52,291 nt of DNA, from sequence record KU052037.1; one strand, 5' to 3'. How positions within the stretch are numbered: the first letter of the stretch is position 1; the number at the start of each line of letters is the position of its first letter. Of the stretch, positions 9,001-15,000 are shown one piece after another. A program made the position numbers. The DNA comes from Escherichia phage Rac-SA53.

Positions 9001-12000
9001 AAAACCGACTAAGACGTCGGTTTATTTTTGTTGTGGATGGGGTAGTGAGCGGTGGCTACTGGTTGCGTTTCTTTAGTGCCAGCATGTTCTCGAAGGCTTC
9101 CTCGTAGAGCTTGTTTAGTCCACGTAGCTGGTTAAGGAGTTTGGCTTTTTCTGACGCAGGTAGAATCTCGAAGAGGTTAAGCAACTCTGCCTGTTCTTCA
9201 TTGACCAGCCTCCATCCTTTGCCTGAAAAGCTATCATCATAAGTATCTGATGATCTTACATAATTCATTAAGTCTTTAAGGTCTTCTCGAATGTCCTCTG
9301 GTTTTACCTTTAACAGAGCCGCAAATTTTAGCGCAGCGTCGGTATTTACCGGTATCTTGCCGTTCAGATACTGGCTAACGGTGCCTTGAGATTCGAATCC
9401 CAACAACTCAGCCGCCAGCTCTTGAGTCAGCTTCAGCTCTTTTTTTCTTGCATTCCATGCGGCTTTTAAATTCTTGCTCGCTTCTGGAGTTGCAATCACT
9501 TCGCGTGTTTTTTTCATACATAGAGTTTATTTGTTTTACCAATATTATCAAAGATAGTCTGACTATTGATCTTTAAAATTAGTGAGGCTAATATTTTCTC
9601 GAGGCATAACGTAGAAGGTTGGCTATGAACTTAAGAGATTATTTAAAAGAGAAACATATCACCCAGTTACAGTTTGGGAAGCTAACGGGTTTATCTCAGG
9701 TGCATGTAAGTCGAGTGCTGGGGGGCTATGAAAGATTCAGCCCTGAAAAAGCATTACGTGTTGCTGAAGTAACGAATTTCGAGGTTACACCTCATGAACT
9801 CCGGCCTGATATCTACCCGAATCCGACCGATGGTTTACCTGTTGGATGTAAGGCTAACACACAAAATGCATAGGAGTTGATTCATGAAAATCAGGCATGA
9901 GCACATCGAATCAGTGTTGTTAGCCCTAGCCGCTGAAAAAGGGCAGGCGTGGGTCGCTAACGCAATTACTGAAGAATATCTGCGCCAGGGGGGCGGCGAA
10001 TTGCCCCTGGTACCAGGCAAGGACTGGAATAATCAGCAGAACATCTATCACCGTTGGTTAAAAGGTGAAACGGAGGCGCAAAGGGTAAAAATTCAGAAAC
10101 TGATCCCTGCAATTCTGGCAATCCTTCCGTGCGAGCTGCGTCACCGACTCTGCATCTTCGATACCCTGGAACGCCGTGCATTACTGGCGGCGCAGGAAGC
10201 GTTGAGTACGGCAATTGATGCGCATGATGACGCAGTCCAGGCCGTTTACCGTAAAGCGCATTTCAGCGGCGGCGGGTCTTCCGACGATTCTTTCATTGTT
10301 CATTAAGCAAAAGTTTCCATGCTGTTTGTGCTTATTGTAAGCCACCGGGCAGCATCATACGGGGCAATTATGGCCGCATTACCATACATGCAACTGTACA
10401 TAGCTGATTACCTGGCTGACACCATGCATTTGTCAGCAGAGGAGCACGGTGCGTATTTGTTGCTGATGTTCAATTACTGGCAAACAGGAAAGCCAATACC
10501 CAAAAACAGGCTGGCAAAAATTTCCCGTCTGACTAACGAGCGATGGGCTGATGTGGAACCATCCTTGCGGGAGTTTTTTTGCGATAACGGCGATGAATGG
10601 GTGCATCTTCGGATTGAGGAAGATCTGGCATCAGTCAGGGAAAAATTAACCAAAAAATCAGCCGCCGGAAAAGCATCTGTTCAAGCCAGAAGAAGCAGAA
10701 AGGAAGCAGATATTCAAAAAAAACAAGAGAGAGATTTAACAGGTGTTCAAACAAATGTTGGTGTGGTGTTTGAACATGACGCAAACACAAAAGCAACTAA
10801 TAAAGATACAGATACAGATCTAAAAGAATTAAACCCCACACATAGCGCGCGCGTGCGCGAGAGTGCTCCGACCAGTGAGTCGAATGGTTTGCCGTTGCAG
10901 GCAGCGGAACCTGATTACCTGGAAGGCCTGAGCGAACCCATCGGCAAATTTCCGATGACCGACGGCTGGAATCCGTCGCCGGATTTCCGACGACGGGCTG
11001 CTCTGTGGGGAGTGGCTCTGCCAGATCCGGAATTTACACCTGCTGAACTTGCCGCCTTCCGGGACTACTGGGCAGCGGAGGGGAAAGTTTTCACGCAGGT
11101 TCAGTGGGAACAGAAATTCGCCCGTCACGTAAATCACGTCAGGGCGCAGGTTAAACCAGTCAGCAAGGGGGGGAACCATGCAGCAACGCCAGGTGGCACT
11201 GCATCACGGGCAGTTCAGGAAATTCGGGCAGCACGTGAACAGTGGGAACGTGAAAATGGATTTATCCGCGACGGAAACGGCGTGGAAGCTGTGGGAACTC
11301 ATGGGGGAGGTTTATTCGAACCGCTGGACCCAGAAGAACGGGGCCGCACCTTCGAAGCTCTGGATTGCACAGATTGGCGCGATGACTGAGCAGCAAATCC
11401 GTCAGGTCTGCCGCCAGTGCATGGACCGCTGCCGGACGGGTGAAACATGGCCTCCGGACCTGGCTGAGTTTGTGGCGCTGATTTCGGAGAGTGGGGCAAA
11501 TCCATTTGGTCTGACGGTGGATGCTGTGATGGAGGAGTACCGCCGCTGGCGCAATGAGTCCTGGCGATACGACGGAAGTGATAAGTACCCGTGGTCTCAG
11601 CCTGTGCTGTATCACATTTGCCTCGAGATGCGTTCAAAGGGGATTGAGCGCCAGATGACCGAAGGGGAATTAAAACGGCTTGCAGAACGGCAGCTGACGA
11701 AATGGGCAAAGCATGTTAGTAACGGCCTGAGTGTTCCGCCAGTCCGGCGACAACTGGCAGCACCAAAACGCCCGTCGGGACCAACGCCAATTGAGTTGCT
11801 GAAACAGGAGTATGAACGCCGGAAAGCGGCTGGTTTTGTTTGAGTTGAGAAGTAATTTTTACCGGGAGGAAATTTTAATGGAAACCGTTTTTGATGCACT
11901 GAAAGCAATGGGAAAAGCCACGTCGGTGGAACTGGCCGCGCGACTTGATATCAGTCGTGAAGAAGTGCTGAACGAGCTGTGGGAACTGAAAAAGGCTGGT

Positions 12001-15000
12001 TTCGTTGATAAAAGCGTATACACCTGGCGTGTGGCTGATAACAACGTTCAGCAGGAACAGCCAGAGCAGGCAGAACCGCCGGAAGAAACCACCACGGCAA
12101 CAGTCGCGAAAATTTCGGAGTGCGATTTAACTGCGACGATTGAACAACGTGGACCACAAACGGCGGATGAACTGGCTACATTGTTCGGTACCACATCACG
12201 CAAAGTGGCTTCAACGCTGGCAATGGCAATCAGCAAAGGACGCTTGGTTCGCGCAAACCAGAACGGTAAATTTCGTTACTGCATACCGGGCGATAATTTA
12301 CCAGCAGAGCCGAAAGCTGCATCGATAACGGAAAATGATGGTAAAGCCTTTCCTCAGCCAGCAGGTGTTGCGTTACCAGTACAGGAAGCTGCAACACAGG
12401 AAGATATTAAAACAGAAACTGTGGCGGACATTGTGCAGTCGTTGCCACCGTTCGCCGAAACGCAAGCGGATGACCTGGTTTTACTATCGCTGCACATGGC
12501 TAACCGTGAGCTGCGCCGGGCGAAAAGTCATGTCCAGAAGTGGGAGCGAGTCTGCGCCGCGCTGCGGGAGCTGAACAAGCACCGGGATATTGTCCGACAG
12601 ATTGTCGATTCCTCCAGTCGTATTGTGTCGGAAAAGTGATTCCAGGGGAGGGCTTATGGCAAAAGTATTTACACAGGAAGAGCGAGAAAAAATTAAAGGG
12701 CAGGTTGTTGAACTCGTACGCCAGAGTGGGCGTGAGACGTTACGACAACTGGAAGCGAAAACAGGTGCGACAAGATATCTGATAAGCGTTCTCGCCAGAG
12801 AGCTGGTTGCCAGTGGCGATGTATACAACTCTGGTTACGGGTTATTTCCGTCTGAACAGGCGCGTAAGGACTGGCAAAACGCCCGCAAAAAACTCTCAAG
12901 GGCAAAGGTGAAGAAAACGGCTGTGGTTGATCCGGACCTTATCAGGTCATTACCTGACGGCGAAATACGCCGCTACGACAGGCGTCAGAACATAATTTGC
13001 CGTGAGTGCCGTCAGAGTGAGGTTATGCAGCGTGTACTGGCGTTCTATCAGGGAGATTTTCAGGAGGTGATGGCGTGAGGGTAAGGGTTTATATCGCCGG
13101 TCCGATGACCGGGTATAAAAATTTCAACCGTGAGGCGTTTCACAGGGCGGAAGAGGAACTGAAACGGGAAGGGCATACAGTCTTAAACCCGGCAGTACTT
13201 CCAGACGGACTGACACAGCCGCACTACATGGATATCTGCATGGCAATGATTCGTTGTGTGGATGCGATTTACATGCTGAAAGGCTGGCAGCGGTCAGCAG
13301 GTGCTAAAGCAGAACTGGCGCTGGCGGAGAAACTGGGGCATGCAGTTATTTTCCAGGAGGCAACCAGTGAGCAAAATTAATTACCAGGCACTGCGAATGG
13401 CGGCAGAAAATGCAACCCCTGGCGAATGGTGTTCTGATGATTACTATGGGGTAATTGCTGATGCCGGACTGAACGCAAATTACTACATAGCATCATGCTC
13501 AGGACCAGATAATCGCGCCAATAAGCGATTCATAGCAGCAGCCAATCCGGCTACCGTGCTGGCAGTGCTTGATGAACGGGAAGCCCAAAACAAACGCATT
13601 GCTGAACTGGAAGTTAATCTTGCGGCGCTGGCGGCGGAGAATGCGGTAATAAAGTCTGCAATTCCAGAACCACGGGATATTGAGGACGACAATGACAATA
13701 TGGATGACGTATCTCTTGCTGAAGATTTCGGGTTCAATCATGCAATAGAATGGATGAGGAGACGGATTCCTGAAACTCCGGCCACCGATGCTTTCCTGGA
13801 TGAAGTACGTGCGGAAGCACGCAACGAGGGGATTAACTATACCGCCAGCCGTCTTGCTGCTGCGTTCAATCACGGATTTATCAATAAGTCTTTACGTGAA
13901 GTTTTCGACGTTACGCGCATGATTCTGTCAGCGAAAGAAGAGTTGGCTAATGAACCGCACCCGATTGATGGTCTGTCCGGTAAATATGCGGAGAAATCCC
14001 TTGAAGAATGGGCGGAACAGATTCGCAAAGGAGACAACCAGTGAGTGAGTCAAAATGCCAAATTAATGGCAACAAGATAGAACCGTGTACGGCTCTGGCA
14101 AAATCCCTTGAGCATGATGCTGAATACACGACGCGAAAAGGTCTGCTGATATACAAAATCTGGAATGAGAGTTTAACTCGCGGCCCTGATTTGGTGATGT
14201 TGCGTTCCGGTGAATTTTCTAAATCACCAGTTCGGGTTTCATTTTGCCCGTTCTGCGGTGAAAGTCTGAAAACGTGGGAGAACAGAAATGAATGAAATTA
14301 GAGAAATACCAGTAGAACGTGATGAATATGGCTGCTGGGCACATCCTGAATATGAAAAATTCTGTGACGGTCGGGAATATATTTCAACGGAAGAGTTTAA
14401 CGCCTGGATGGAGGAAAATAATCTTCAATACGTCCTCTGCTTCAGAGATGAAGGATGTGCTGACCTTGATGCGTGTGATGCTGATATTTCTGCATGGGAA
14501 CCGGAACGACCAGAGGGCAATGGATGGTTTATTGGTTCAATACATGACACCGAAGATGGCCCGGTTTGTGTATGGCTGAGAAATAAGGCCGAAGCATAAA
14601 GGCTATAAACCGACTAACAACTAAATACTGAAGATTTAAATCAGAAACGATTTTTATTAAATCCTTAACCGGAGGGATTTCTGCACCCTCAGAACATCAG
14701 GAGGCCGTCTGAAAGGGCGGAACAGATAATGCTTACGTTGAAACATTTGGTGATGCCTCTAATTAGTTGAATCTGATGTATAATACGGGCTTTTGAGGTT
14801 ATCTCATGGCCAGCGTTAATATTCATTGTCCCCGTTGTCAGTCAGCTCAGGTTTACCGCCATGGTCAGAACCCTAAAGGCCGTGACAGATTTCGCTGCCG
14901 TGACTGCCACCGTGTGTTTCAGCTCACTTATACTTATCAAGCACGTAAGCCGGGTATGAAAGAGCTGATAACTGAAATGGCCTTTAATGGTGCCGGGGTT

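Follow-up and report, generated by a model that had tools for sequence, protein, structure and literature searches.

The six genes located between positions 11878 and 14599 of the window (the entire 52,291-nucleotide sequence of Escherichia phage Rac-SA53, KU052037.1) constitute an accessory segment in the rightward early operon of a Rac-like lambdoid prophage, with the replication genes on one side and the antiterminator region on the other. The third of these, g3, codes for a DUF4406 protein. The combined reading, namely an accessory segment of cassettes whose DUF4406 member is likely an active enzyme of the nucleoside 2-deoxyribosyltransferase (NDT)/DNPH1 type acting on a deoxynucleoside 5'-monophosphate (dNMP), has a probability of approximately 0.6.

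Gene layout and mosaicism

The prophage is inserted beside ttcA and corresponds to the LT-II/EplBA toxin prophage of E. coli strain SA53. Directly upstream of the block are the replication genes (10319-11843), as identified by Pfam matches and RefSeq annotation. The first (10319-11389) encodes an O-like protein with Pfam DUF1376 and DnaT domains, and the second (11382-11843) a helicase loader resembling lambda P (Pfam Phage_lambda_P, E = 1e-16). The stop codon of the latter precedes g1 (11878-12639) by 34 nucleotides, and g1 itself begins with an ATG that has GGGAGG upstream. After a gap of 16 nucleotides, g2 (12656-13078) likewise starts with ATG. The next three genes initiate with GTG, with g3 (13075-13380) overlapping the stop of g2 by four nucleotides (GTGA), g4 (13367-14044) overlapping g3 by 14 nucleotides, and g5 (14041-14295) overlapping g4 by four (again GTGA). 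The last gene, g6 (14288-14599), starts with ATG and overlaps g5 by eight nucleotides, ATGAATGA. All of these genes, including those for replication, lie on the + strand. An earlier note, made from the sequence alone, had described six tightly coupled small genes following the replication genes, several of them with GTG starts overlapping upstream stops; the coordinates and the RefSeq annotation bear out this arrangement, and the GTG overlaps occur in g3, g4, and g5.

The coordinates agree both with the sequence as read and with the RefSeq annotation of an identical locus. Two RefSeq genomes match the block with 100% identity and bear the same domain names. It is an already annotated and ordinary run of small early genes, and these are real genes, chance open reading frames being excluded. 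Sites resembling promoters or terminators are not in excess within the block, and its early expression would presumably proceed from the rightward promoter. The six genes would be translated as one coupled string, yet they do not form one machine. In lambda, the same slot is occupied by ren and nin.

The block is a mosaic in which each gene is an independently reassorting cassette, and the six do not constitute one functional block. Among 5,426 complete E. coli genomes, the whole block, at a coverage of at least 80%, is present in two, pieces of it in 4,665, the g5-g6 pair in 252, and g3 alone in 863 (16%), with up to four copies per genome. In 80 viral contigs with DUF4406, the preceding gene encodes a DUF977 protein (39), another HTH protein (24), a 72-residue protein (9), DnaB (3), or Dam (2), and the following gene an Ead/Ea22 protein (38), a 63-residue protein (10), a DUF4752-like protein (6), or others; given that these contigs are close relatives (63-97% identity), the counts do not represent independent events. 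The 63-residue protein carries the Pfam label DUF1382 in Enterobacter loci, and in Enterobacter prophages DUF4406 is found in a leftward operon, preceded by a DNA methylase gene. It is this choice of several alternative neighbors that reveals the block as a mosaic of cassettes. DUF4406 is also present in phages of Vibrio, Arthrobacter, Mycobacterium, and Pseudomonas, and in other phage groups its neighbors are mostly small genes without assigned function. It is only loosely linked to genes of the nucleotide pool: the next gene is MazG-like in one mycobacteriophage, and in phage DrSierra the genes for a dNMP kinase and a thioredoxin-domain protein lie within about 2 kb. In 34 longer members of the family, no Pfam fusion partner was found.

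An organization into functional modules, with the upstream small HTH protein (DUF977 or an alternative) and DUF4406 forming one pair and g5 and g6 a second, appears unlikely. The gene for the HTH-type protein ends four nucleotides inside the DUF4406 start in 63 of the 80 enterobacterial contigs, although, as noted above, these are close kin. The order of DUF977 then DUF4406 repeats in Salmonella and E. coli prophages, and a g6 homologue lies directly downstream of g5, with the same overlap, in seven of the eight loci having g5. DUF4406, however, also follows the 72-residue protein, DnaB, or a methylase, belongs to a different operon in Enterobacter, and has unrelated neighbors across the other phage groups, and many loci contain g6 without g5.

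Fold and putative active site region of the DUF4406 protein

The 101-residue g3 protein matches Pfam DUF4406 with an E value of 1.4e-37 (128.4 bits versus a cutoff of 22) and phrog_355, 'nucleoside 2-deoxyribosyltransferase'. The string VRVYIAGPMTG, already recognized in the earlier reading, corresponds to residues 3-13. The AlphaFold2 model of the protein (pLDDT of 90.7 and pTM of 0.84) was searched with Foldseek, and the top PDB matches were NDTs, MilB, DNPH1, and BcmB, with TM-scores of 0.70-0.76 on the query. The best NDT match was 2a0k (E = 4.9e-5), and a TIR structure, 7xoz, was found lower in the list (E = 8e-3, TM-score of 0.57). As judged from the predicted structure, g3 can be confidently assigned, with respect to its fold, as a minimal member of the NDT/DNPH1 superfamily. 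With the fold confirmed, the profile and structure searches thus connected the protein to nucleotide enzymes, as the earlier note had proposed, rather than to a mundane conserved function.

The NDTs from T. brucei, L. mexicana, Chroococcidiopsis, and Lactobacillus, which are the best structural matches, have in common with g3 the Y-I-A-G-P start, and the proline following β2 pairs with Pro39. By sequence, a profile of diverse DUF4406 proteins yielded the T. brucei NDT as its sole significant PDB profile match (E = 1.1e-4), with Tyr6 aligned to the tyrosine on β1, and Glu80 and Ser74 aligned to the glutamate and the aspartate of DCGTAFE, respectively. The aspartate that binds the 5'-OH in the NDTs is accordingly a serine in g3. 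The residues were paired on the basis of profile alignments (E values of 1e-4 for this one and 0.1 for that with DmtZ described below) and of helix register. By alignment, the third catalytic position, which is an aspartate in most NDTs and DNPH1 and an asparagine in TbPDT and DmtZ, is Cys55 in g3. In addition, g3 stops directly after β5 and is without the C-terminal lid of roughly 40-50 residues. In NDT, DNPH1, and DmtZ, the residues absent from g3 complete the active site of the neighboring subunit.

DUF4406 comprises 17,601 cluster representatives. Across 67 representatives taken from 50%-identity clusters, Gly9, Phe22, Pro43, Tyr51, and Ser74 are invariant, Glu80 is retained in 66 and Tyr6 in 61, and Gly76 and Ala77 are also kept. 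Position 55 is a cysteine in 45, an aspartate in 9, and a glycine, threonine, or alanine in 13.

DNPH1 (Rcl, the 2'-deoxynucleoside 5'-phosphate N-hydrolase) and the CMP/hmCMP N-glycosidases MilB and BcmB share with g3 the flavodoxin-like fold (Foldseek TM-scores of 0.61-0.76 on the query), the tyrosine on β1, the glutamate (the nucleophile) in S-x-G-x-x-x-E at the start of helix 4, and a serine rather than an aspartate six residues ahead of it. They differ in that g3 is about 30-60 residues shorter, the C-terminal segment being absent, in that Asp80 of DNPH1 is replaced by Cys55, and in that g3 displays the loop GPM(T/S)G and a conserved Asn18-Arg19 versus GSIRGG of the DNPH1 group. Sequence searches gave no match between g3 and DNPH1.

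A phage enzyme of the NDT superfamily that acts on dNMP is DmtZ of the Z-genome phages (Gordonia phage Ghobes and Arthrobacter phage Wayne), a dAMP hydrolase and deoxyribose-5-phosphate transferase with a Tyr6-Asn77-Glu103 triad (PMC12884076). Both proteins have the β1 tyrosine, and hhalign paired RSAGAKAE of g3 with RSWGVPAE of the phage Wayne DmtZ domain, albeit weakly (E = 0.1). Unlike g3, DmtZ employs Asn77 in its triad, and the partner subunit contributes Trp124 as a lid; the enzyme contains about 145 residues, and its gene adjoins those for DutZ and PurZ0. A search of DmtZ against Pfam DUF4406 gave no match, and the annotation of the prophage carrying g3 includes no PurZ-type genes. DmtZ is the best available precedent for phage use of a fold of this type.

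Proposed activity and its alternatives

Most likely, g3 is catalytically active and, as a member of the NDT/DNPH1 superfamily, acts on N-glycosidic bonds. In the proposed mechanism, Glu80 would attack C1' of the 2'-deoxyribose to form a covalent intermediate, with Tyr6 positioning Glu80 and imposing 2'-deoxy specificity, a property known to be conferred by the Tyr-Glu pair in NDT/DNPH1 enzymes (PMC11204291). Ser74, in place of the 5'-OH-binding aspartate of the true transferases, would provide space for a 5'-phosphate; those superfamily members using a 5'-phosphate are without the Asp/Asn that holds the 5'-OH (PMC12884076). In light of this room for the phosphate and the specificity expected from Tyr6, the likely substrate would be a dNMP. 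It might be hydrolyzed to the base and deoxyribose 5-phosphate, or the sugar phosphate might be handed to another base as in DmtZ. The likely role would be to reshape the pool of deoxynucleotides during the early phase of lytic growth. Given that the third catalytic residue is replaced and variable, the chemistry could be slower, different, or absent.

It is also conceivable, but improbable, that g3 serves as an anti-defense factor, destroying or sequestering early in infection a nucleotide immune signal or an NAD-derived messenger of the Thoeris, CBASS, or Pycsar type. Such a role would suit an accessory gene of the early operon whose neighbors, a relative of Ren and an orthologue of YdaW, have links to exclusion or toxin blocking; the fold is related to that of the TIR domains, as in 7xoz, and the absent lid could admit larger ligands. 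The β1 tyrosine and catalytic glutamate, however, are the hallmark of 2'-deoxy specificity and disfavor substrates with a 2'-OH (PMC11204291), so that the conserved tyrosine argues against NAD- or ADP-ribose-derived signals and towards a 2'-deoxynucleotide. Furthermore, by structure as well as by sequence, g3 is matched best by NDT/DNPH1 enzymes rather than by TIR or SLOG sensors, and the near invariance of Glu80 suggests catalysis over a pure sponge. A PADLOC search gave no match for g3, and the literature searched for deoxyribosyltransferases with anti-defense or for the family name contained no such role, the name DUF4406 returning incidental mentions and no characterization of the family. 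The suggestion of the earlier note that the DUF4406 protein is a candidate anti-defense or host-takeover factor is thus unsupported.

Still less likely is a loss of catalysis, with the protein being a remnant of the NDT fold that binds nucleotides or has a structural role instead of acting as an enzyme. The general-acid Asp/Asn position is a cysteine and varies across the family, and the characterized relatives complete their active site with a C-terminal part that is missing here, but the retention of Glu80, Ser74, Gly76, Ala77, and Tyr6 across the 67 representatives of so large a family is the pattern that fits a conserved active site.

Least probable of all is an exclusion or toxic effector serving the lysogen, for example by hydrolyzing modified deoxynucleotides (hmdCMP or hmdUMP) needed by invading phages or by depleting a nucleotide in the manner of the NDT-like effectors of type II retrons. 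In its favor, DNPH1 acts on hmdUMP (PDB molecule names), MilB has been solved in complex with hmCMP (PDB entry titles), the NDT-like effectors of type II retrons are stand-alone proteins (PMC12405507), g3 is present in 16% of the E. coli genomes in up to four copies as given above, and a defense-like gene pair is located a short way downstream. However, g3 is translationally coupled inside the rightward early operon and carries no promoter-like site that would be its own, so that a lysogen would be expected not to express it; it is not matched by PADLOC although that tool was built for known defense systems, and it has relatives in the Vibrio, Arthrobacter, Mycobacterium, and Pseudomonas phages.

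The five accompanying genes

The g1 gene encodes a full-length, 253-residue orthologue of YdaW (RefSeq CDS WP_161622424.1). A winged-helix-like HTH at the N terminus is joined by a further HTH-like segment and, at the C terminus, by a DUF1627 domain (Pfam, E = 1e-96); the protein also matches phrog_630 (E = 1.9e-127). Residues 4-46 match HTH_20, TrmB, and MarR_2, all slightly under the cutoff (for HTH_20, 26.2 bits versus 27). Over residues 1-151 the protein is 93% identical to K-12 YdaW, which is truncated to 186 residues with an unrelated tail, whereas g1 is intact and retains the whole DUF1627 domain. In the Rac prophage, YdaW is likewise positioned after the replication genes. In an overexpression screen, YdaW was scored as blocking RcaT, the toxin of retron-Sen2 (bioRxiv 10.1101/2020.06.22.160242).

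The 140-residue g2 protein, referred to as "LygF" in some phage records, matches Pfam DUF977 (E = 6.9e-32) and phrog_142, 'Ren-like exclusion protein' (E = 1.9e-48). Its sequence identifies it as a distant relative of lambda Ren: the last 20 residues are 60% identical (pairwise E = 3e-7), both proteins have a C-terminal CRQSxxMxRVLAxY motif and fall into phrog_142, and both genes lie just past the replication genes. Ren, however, contains 96 residues, the similarity is limited to about 20 of them, and a search of Ren against Pfam DUF977 gave no match. In addition, unlike in lambda, the YdaW gene sits between P and g2. Both g1 and g2 are small HTH proteins, probably acting on replication or on host/phage exclusion functions. 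It is to these two that any support for an anti-defense role of the block is confined, and that support is indirect.

The 225-residue g4 protein was assigned to the Ead/Ea22 group, the lambda member of which promotes lysogeny (PMC7093339, PMC10834534). An Ead_Ea22 domain that includes a coiled-coil segment makes up its N-terminal portion (Pfam, E = 6.7e-27; 95.2 bits versus a cutoff of 27), and a separate module its C-terminal portion. The full-length protein corresponds to phrog_368 (E = 2.3e-68), and the matches to phrog_614 and phrog_28257 are limited to the C-terminal portion. This half is a different module from that of lambda Ea22 and P22 Ead, and g4 belongs to the rightward operon rather than to the exo-xis region. 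A PDB sequence search with g4 gave no relative, the solved Ea22 domain included.

The family identifications made for the block in the earlier note all proved correct by Pfam and PHROG profile matches, and the description "small Cys-motif proteins" holds for g5 but not for g6. The g5 protein (84 residues; phrog_4030, E = 2.3e-40) matched no Pfam family. Its four cysteines, C6, C16, C69, and C72 (C-x9-C ... C-P-F-C), are retained in Salmonella and in one divergent homologue, and it is probably a small zinc-binding protein, a putative zinc ribbon. For g6 (103 residues; phrog_1372), a protein limited to Enterobacterales prophages, no Pfam family or known fold was detected. It carries seven cysteines here, of which C94 alone is conserved among 41 family members, and it is thus not a Cys-motif protein.

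Organization of the block and its setting

The region of the window extending from nucleotide 11878 to 14599 contains six plus-strand genes, referred to here as g1 to g6, that follow the O-like and P replication genes. These early accessory genes make up an ordinary mosaic, annotated already in public genomes, and all six bear matching family names in RefSeq. The coordinates given here were taken from a reading of the sequence and from the RefSeq table. The first gene, g1 (11878-12639), begins with an ATG codon 34 nt past the P stop, and g2 (12656-13078), also with an ATG start, follows after a gap of 16 nt. 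The next three genes, g3 (13075-13380), g4 (13367-14044), and g5 (14041-14295), all begin with GTG and overlap the genes before them by 4 nt (GTGA), 14 nt, and 4 nt (GTGA), respectively. The last, g6 (14288-14599), has an ATG start and overlaps g5 by 8 nt. A purine-rich ribosome-binding stretch lies a few bases 5' of every start. The tight coupling of the six genes behind the replication genes, with some GTG starts placed over upstream stops, had been noticed in an earlier note made from the sequence alone, and it is confirmed by the sequence and the RefSeq table. A scan of the block for promoters and terminators returned sites no more numerous than in shuffled sequence, and an Rfam search of the block revealed no RNA family.

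The 2.7-kb block is 100% identical to segments of two RefSeq chromosomes, namely those of E. coli STEC719 and SA53-3. According to the RefSeq annotation, the SA53-3 copy resides within a prophage of ∼50 kb positioned between ttcA and uspF. Reading from the left, the prophage carries intR, xisR, ralR, recT, recE, and kilR, then a cI-like repressor gene, ydaS, and ydaT, followed by the DUF1376/DnaT O-like gene, the lambda-P-like gene, and g1 to g6. Beyond g6 are an IS1 element, a pair of genes belonging to the sce7726 and beta families, hokD, the DUF1367, DUF1364, and DUF1133 genes, two AB5 toxin operons, and the lysis and morphogenesis genes. Prophages of this type are well known, and the accessory region formed by the six genes is a routine one.

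Note that the open frame of P can be followed back as far as 11178 and shares the last ∼210 nt of the O-like gene, and that the RefSeq start of P is at 11382. The family phrog_15931 (482 positions) matches the C-terminus of the O-like protein and P alike, suggesting that the O and P genes are fused or mis-called in some phages.

The six genes do not form one system. Among 5,426 complete E. coli genomes, only two contain the whole block at a coverage of at least 80%, and 4,665 contain a match to some part of it. The g3 gene alone is found in 863 of these genomes and the g5-g6 pair in 252. DUF4406, the family of g3, is common: 16% of complete E. coli genomes carry it, as do phages from many groups of bacteria. 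No record in a search of phage sequences covers even half of the block.

The neighbors of DUF4406 vary as well. In 80 related viral contigs, which are close relatives such that the adjacency counts are not independent, the gene located 5' of DUF4406 encodes a DUF977 protein in 39, a sigma-70-region-4-type HTH protein in 24, a 72-residue protein in nine, DnaB in three, and a Dam methylase in two. On the 3' side are an Ead/Ea22-like gene (38 contigs), a gene for a 63-residue protein that carries the Pfam label DUF1382 in Enterobacter loci (10), a DUF4752-like gene (six), and others. In Salmonella prophages the order is DUF977, DUF4406, DUF4752, g5, and g6. The DUF4406 gene of Enterobacter prophages lies in the leftward operon, 3' of a Dcm/Dam methylase gene, and its surroundings in phages of Vibrio, Arthrobacter, Mycobacterium, and Pseudomonas are unrelated small early genes. 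Only two adjacencies recur, that of an HTH protein followed by DUF4406 and that of g5 followed by g6.

The sigma-70-region-4-type protein (3600-4004 of locus L013 and 23 loci like it) is small and unrelated to the DUF977 protein whose slot it occupies. Its gene overlaps the DUF4406 start by 4 nt in 21 of the 24 loci and by slightly more in the other three.

Fold and putative active site of the DUF4406 protein

The g3 protein matches the Pfam DUF4406 profile (PF14359) with a score of 128.4 bits (cut-off 22, E = 1.4e-37) over positions 2-91 of 91. An AlphaFold2 model, calculated with a 36-sequence alignment, has a mean pLDDT of 90.7 and a pTM of 0.84, and it is characterized by a five-stranded α/β domain that extends to residue 93. 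When the model was compared with the PDB using Foldseek, the top 31 matches were all chains of nucleoside 2-deoxyribosyltransferases (NDTs), MilB, or 2'-deoxynucleoside 5'-phosphate N-hydrolase (DNPH1), with TM scores on the query of 0.68-0.76. The T. brucei NDT (PDB code 2a0k) ranked first (E = 4.9e-5, TM 0.73), followed by the NDTs from Chroococcidiopsis and Leishmania, and, behind these, MilB, human DNPH1, and BcmB. A TIR domain appeared at rank 34 with a TM score of 0.57. The model displays the flavodoxin-like α/β fold of NDT, DNPH1, and MilB, and the nucleotide-enzyme fold that the earlier note had proposed for this protein is borne out by the structure search.

The family is large, with 17,601 members at E ≤0.001 among the 1.84 billion cluster representatives searched. 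A profile built from 67 diverse DUF4406 representatives matches 2a0k by sequence alone with an E-value of 1.1e-4. A PDB sequence search with the single g3 sequence gave no match. The shallow alignment, A1, gave one match only, which was spurious; only the more diverse profile, A5, found an NDT. The alignment of the family with human DNPH1 in hhalign was limited to the β1 segment.

Residues were mapped by way of the profile alignment to 2a0k, a weaker alignment (E = 0.1) to the DmtZ domain of Arthrobacter phage Wayne, an NDT-superfamily enzyme of Z-genome phages, and the helix register, with no three-dimensional superposition. Glu80, conserved in 66 of the 67 representatives, pairs with the glutamates of DCGTAFE in the T. 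brucei NDT and RSWGVPAE in DmtZ. As such, it would take the place of the nucleophile in the [D/S]-x-G-x-x-x-E motif, where helix 4 begins. The counterparts of Tyr6 are the tyrosine of IYIAGP in the T. brucei NDT and, in DNPH1, Tyr24 of LYFCG. Tyr6 is predicted to serve as the β1 tyrosine that hydrogen-bonds the glutamate; its position is a tyrosine in 61 and a phenylalanine in five of the 67. The invariant Ser74 (67/67) pairs with the aspartate of PDCGTAFE in the T. brucei NDT and with a serine in DmtZ; the spacing of the motif sets it opposite the serine of PSLGVGYE in DNPH1 as well. It would thus place a small uncharged residue where the 5'-OH Asp/Asn otherwise lies, as in the branch that uses 5'-phosphates. 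Members acting on 5'-phosphorylated substrates are without the Asp/Asn that binds the 5'-OH (PMC12884076). The human DNPH1 sequence employed for comparison is identical to the PDB chains over residues 20-162, and the catalytic residues mutated, according to the PDB entry names, are Y24, D80, and E104.

The third residue of the triad, an asparagine in the T. brucei enzyme and DmtZ and an aspartate elsewhere, is absent from helix 3 of g3, where both the profile alignment and the helix register place Cys55. Among the 67 representatives this position is a cysteine in 45, an aspartate in nine, and a glycine, threonine, or alanine in 13. Asp53 of the YMDIC segment was considered as the catalytic aspartate and rejected, since only 26 of the 67 retain it and its register puts it two residues ahead of the triad position. 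Also missing is the C-terminal segment that completes the active site of the partner subunit. Indeed, g3 contains 101 residues, whereas the matched PDB structures contain 119-165, and the confident model stops after β5 at residue 93. The loop following β1, which would correspond to the phosphate-binding loop of the 5'-phosphate-using branch, is conserved as GPM(T/S)G, in contrast to GSIRGG in DNPH1, and beyond it are Asn18 (61/67) and Arg19 (55/67).

On the basis of the conserved Tyr6 and Ser74, g3 most resembles a deoxynucleoside-monophosphate enzyme. We make this assignment by inference, since the cysteine at the triad position and the absent C-terminal lid depart from the characterized relatives. 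The phage DmtZ, with a triad of Tyr6-Asn77-Glu103, hydrolyzes dAMP and also passes deoxyribose 5-phosphate on to a different base (PMC12884076). In NDT and DNPH1, a hydrogen bond between the tyrosine and the glutamate leads to specificity for 2'-deoxy substrates, and a 2'-OH would over-constrain the glutamate (PMC11204291). This rule, together with the conservation of Tyr6 and Ser74, makes it less likely that g3 cleaves NAD-derived signals, an activity for which the earlier note had proposed a test, or signals derived from ADP-ribose. A literature search recovered no assay of any DUF4406 member.

A further reading, to which we would give roughly one chance in eight, is that the large DUF4406 family consists of minimal NDT-fold enzymes that have no lid and employ a Tyr-Cys-Glu site, and whose chemistry or substrate may differ from those of all characterized relatives. 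Such enzymes might function, for example, in phage-specific deoxynucleotide salvage or base swapping, or in an attack on a deoxynucleotide-based host defense metabolite. If so, the frequent pairing with a small HTH protein in enterobacterial prophages would represent a real two-gene module.

When 34 DUF4406 proteins of greater length were scanned with Pfam, none showed a partner domain. A fusion to MazG, hinted at by a match to phrog_12019 and by the label of DrSierra gp27, was discarded: gp27 is a plain 122-residue DUF4406 protein that has been misnamed. Two such names were encountered in phage GenBank records, 'deoxycytidylate deaminase' for gp126 of Mycobacterium phage Nebkiss (L095 2510-2797, ∼95 codons) and 'MazG-like pyrophosphatase' for gp27 of Arthrobacter phage DrSierra (L099 2004-2372, ∼122 codons). 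Both genes lie over the DUF4406 match, and their product names look like annotation errors. A function for this abundant, minimal NDT-fold family, confidently placed by fold and with a site unlike the textbook triad, would cover thousands of phage genes and would also mend these conflicting labels.

The neighboring genes

The families named in the earlier note proved correct in family searches. The g1 protein matches Pfam DUF1627 (PF07789) with 321.4 bits (cut-off 28.1, E = 1e-96) and is 93% identical to K-12 YdaW over 151 residues; as judged from this similarity, it is the intact form, and an ortholog, of Rac YdaW. In a published screen, overexpressed K-12 ydaW was among the prophage genes that block the retron-Sen2 toxin RcaT, a screen hit with no mechanism attached.

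The g2 protein matches Pfam DUF977 (E = 6.9e-32), whereas lambda Ren does not. The two fall in a common PHROG (E = 1.9e-48 for g2), but their direct similarity is confined to 20 C-terminal residues (E = 3e-7). The lambda ren gene follows P, in a slot equal to that of g2. According to the literature, Ren is probably related to replication and interacts with the Rex proteins, for which a literature search recovered two-hybrid data only.

The g4 protein matches Pfam Ead_Ea22 (PF13935) with 95.2 bits (cut-off 27, E = 6.7e-27). Lambda Ea22 is known from the literature to favor lysogeny. The g4 gene lies in the rightward operon 3' of P rather than in the leftward, exo-xis location of Ead/Ea22 genes. 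The protein itself is a mosaic in that its N-terminal half corresponds to Ead_Ea22 and its C-terminal half to phrog_614 and phrog_28257, PHROGs found without the Ead domain; this C-terminal module differs from that of lambda Ea22.

Family searches with g5 (84 residues) and g6 (103 residues) gave PHROG matches only. The earlier note had listed small Cys-motif proteins in the set. The description holds for g5, which keeps its four cysteines in a C-x9-C ... C-x2-C pattern, but not for g6, in which one of seven cysteines is conserved in the family.

PDB sequence searches showed no relatives of g1, g2, or g4, and an NCBIfam search gave nothing useful for g2 to g6. With PADLOC, g2 to g6 were without a match at E ≤0.01, and g1 had weak HTH-type matches only. 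The suggestion that the block encodes anti-defense factors has only indirect support, and there is none for g3, the gene that had been highlighted.

Elements downstream of the block

An IS1-family element with two open reading frames joined by a programmed frameshift extends from 14750 to 15517. It is bordered on both sides by the identical eight bases, AAACATTT, which marks it as a simple insertion, not a deletion scar, in the interval separating g6 from the sce7726 gene. Beyond it lie the sce7726-family gene (15680-16258, plus strand) and the convergent 'beta family' gene (16218-17315, minus strand), the 3' ends of which overlap by 41 nt. Both match PADLOC models (cll, E = 2.4e-28; PD-Lambda-2_C, E = 1.4e-41), and the pair is a candidate prophage-borne defense module. 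A sok RNA (17703-17878; 122 bits in Rfam against a gathering score of 59) and hokD (17873-18028, by the RefSeq annotation) form a hok/sok toxin-antitoxin locus.

The two AB5-type toxin operons are situated in the late region at 20466-21697 and 23488-24628. By annotation, one encodes a subtilase-family binding subunit and EplA, and the other, located between the lysis genes and the terminase, contains an enterotoxin A-family gene and an enterotoxin gene. The prophage is of the Rac-like type for which LT-II and pertussis-like toxins have been reported (Jobling 2016, as cited in PMC5917428). Strain SA53-3, one of the two with a matching chromosome, originated from a water buffalo in Thailand, an origin in keeping with the LT-II Rac-like prophages outlined in that citing paper.
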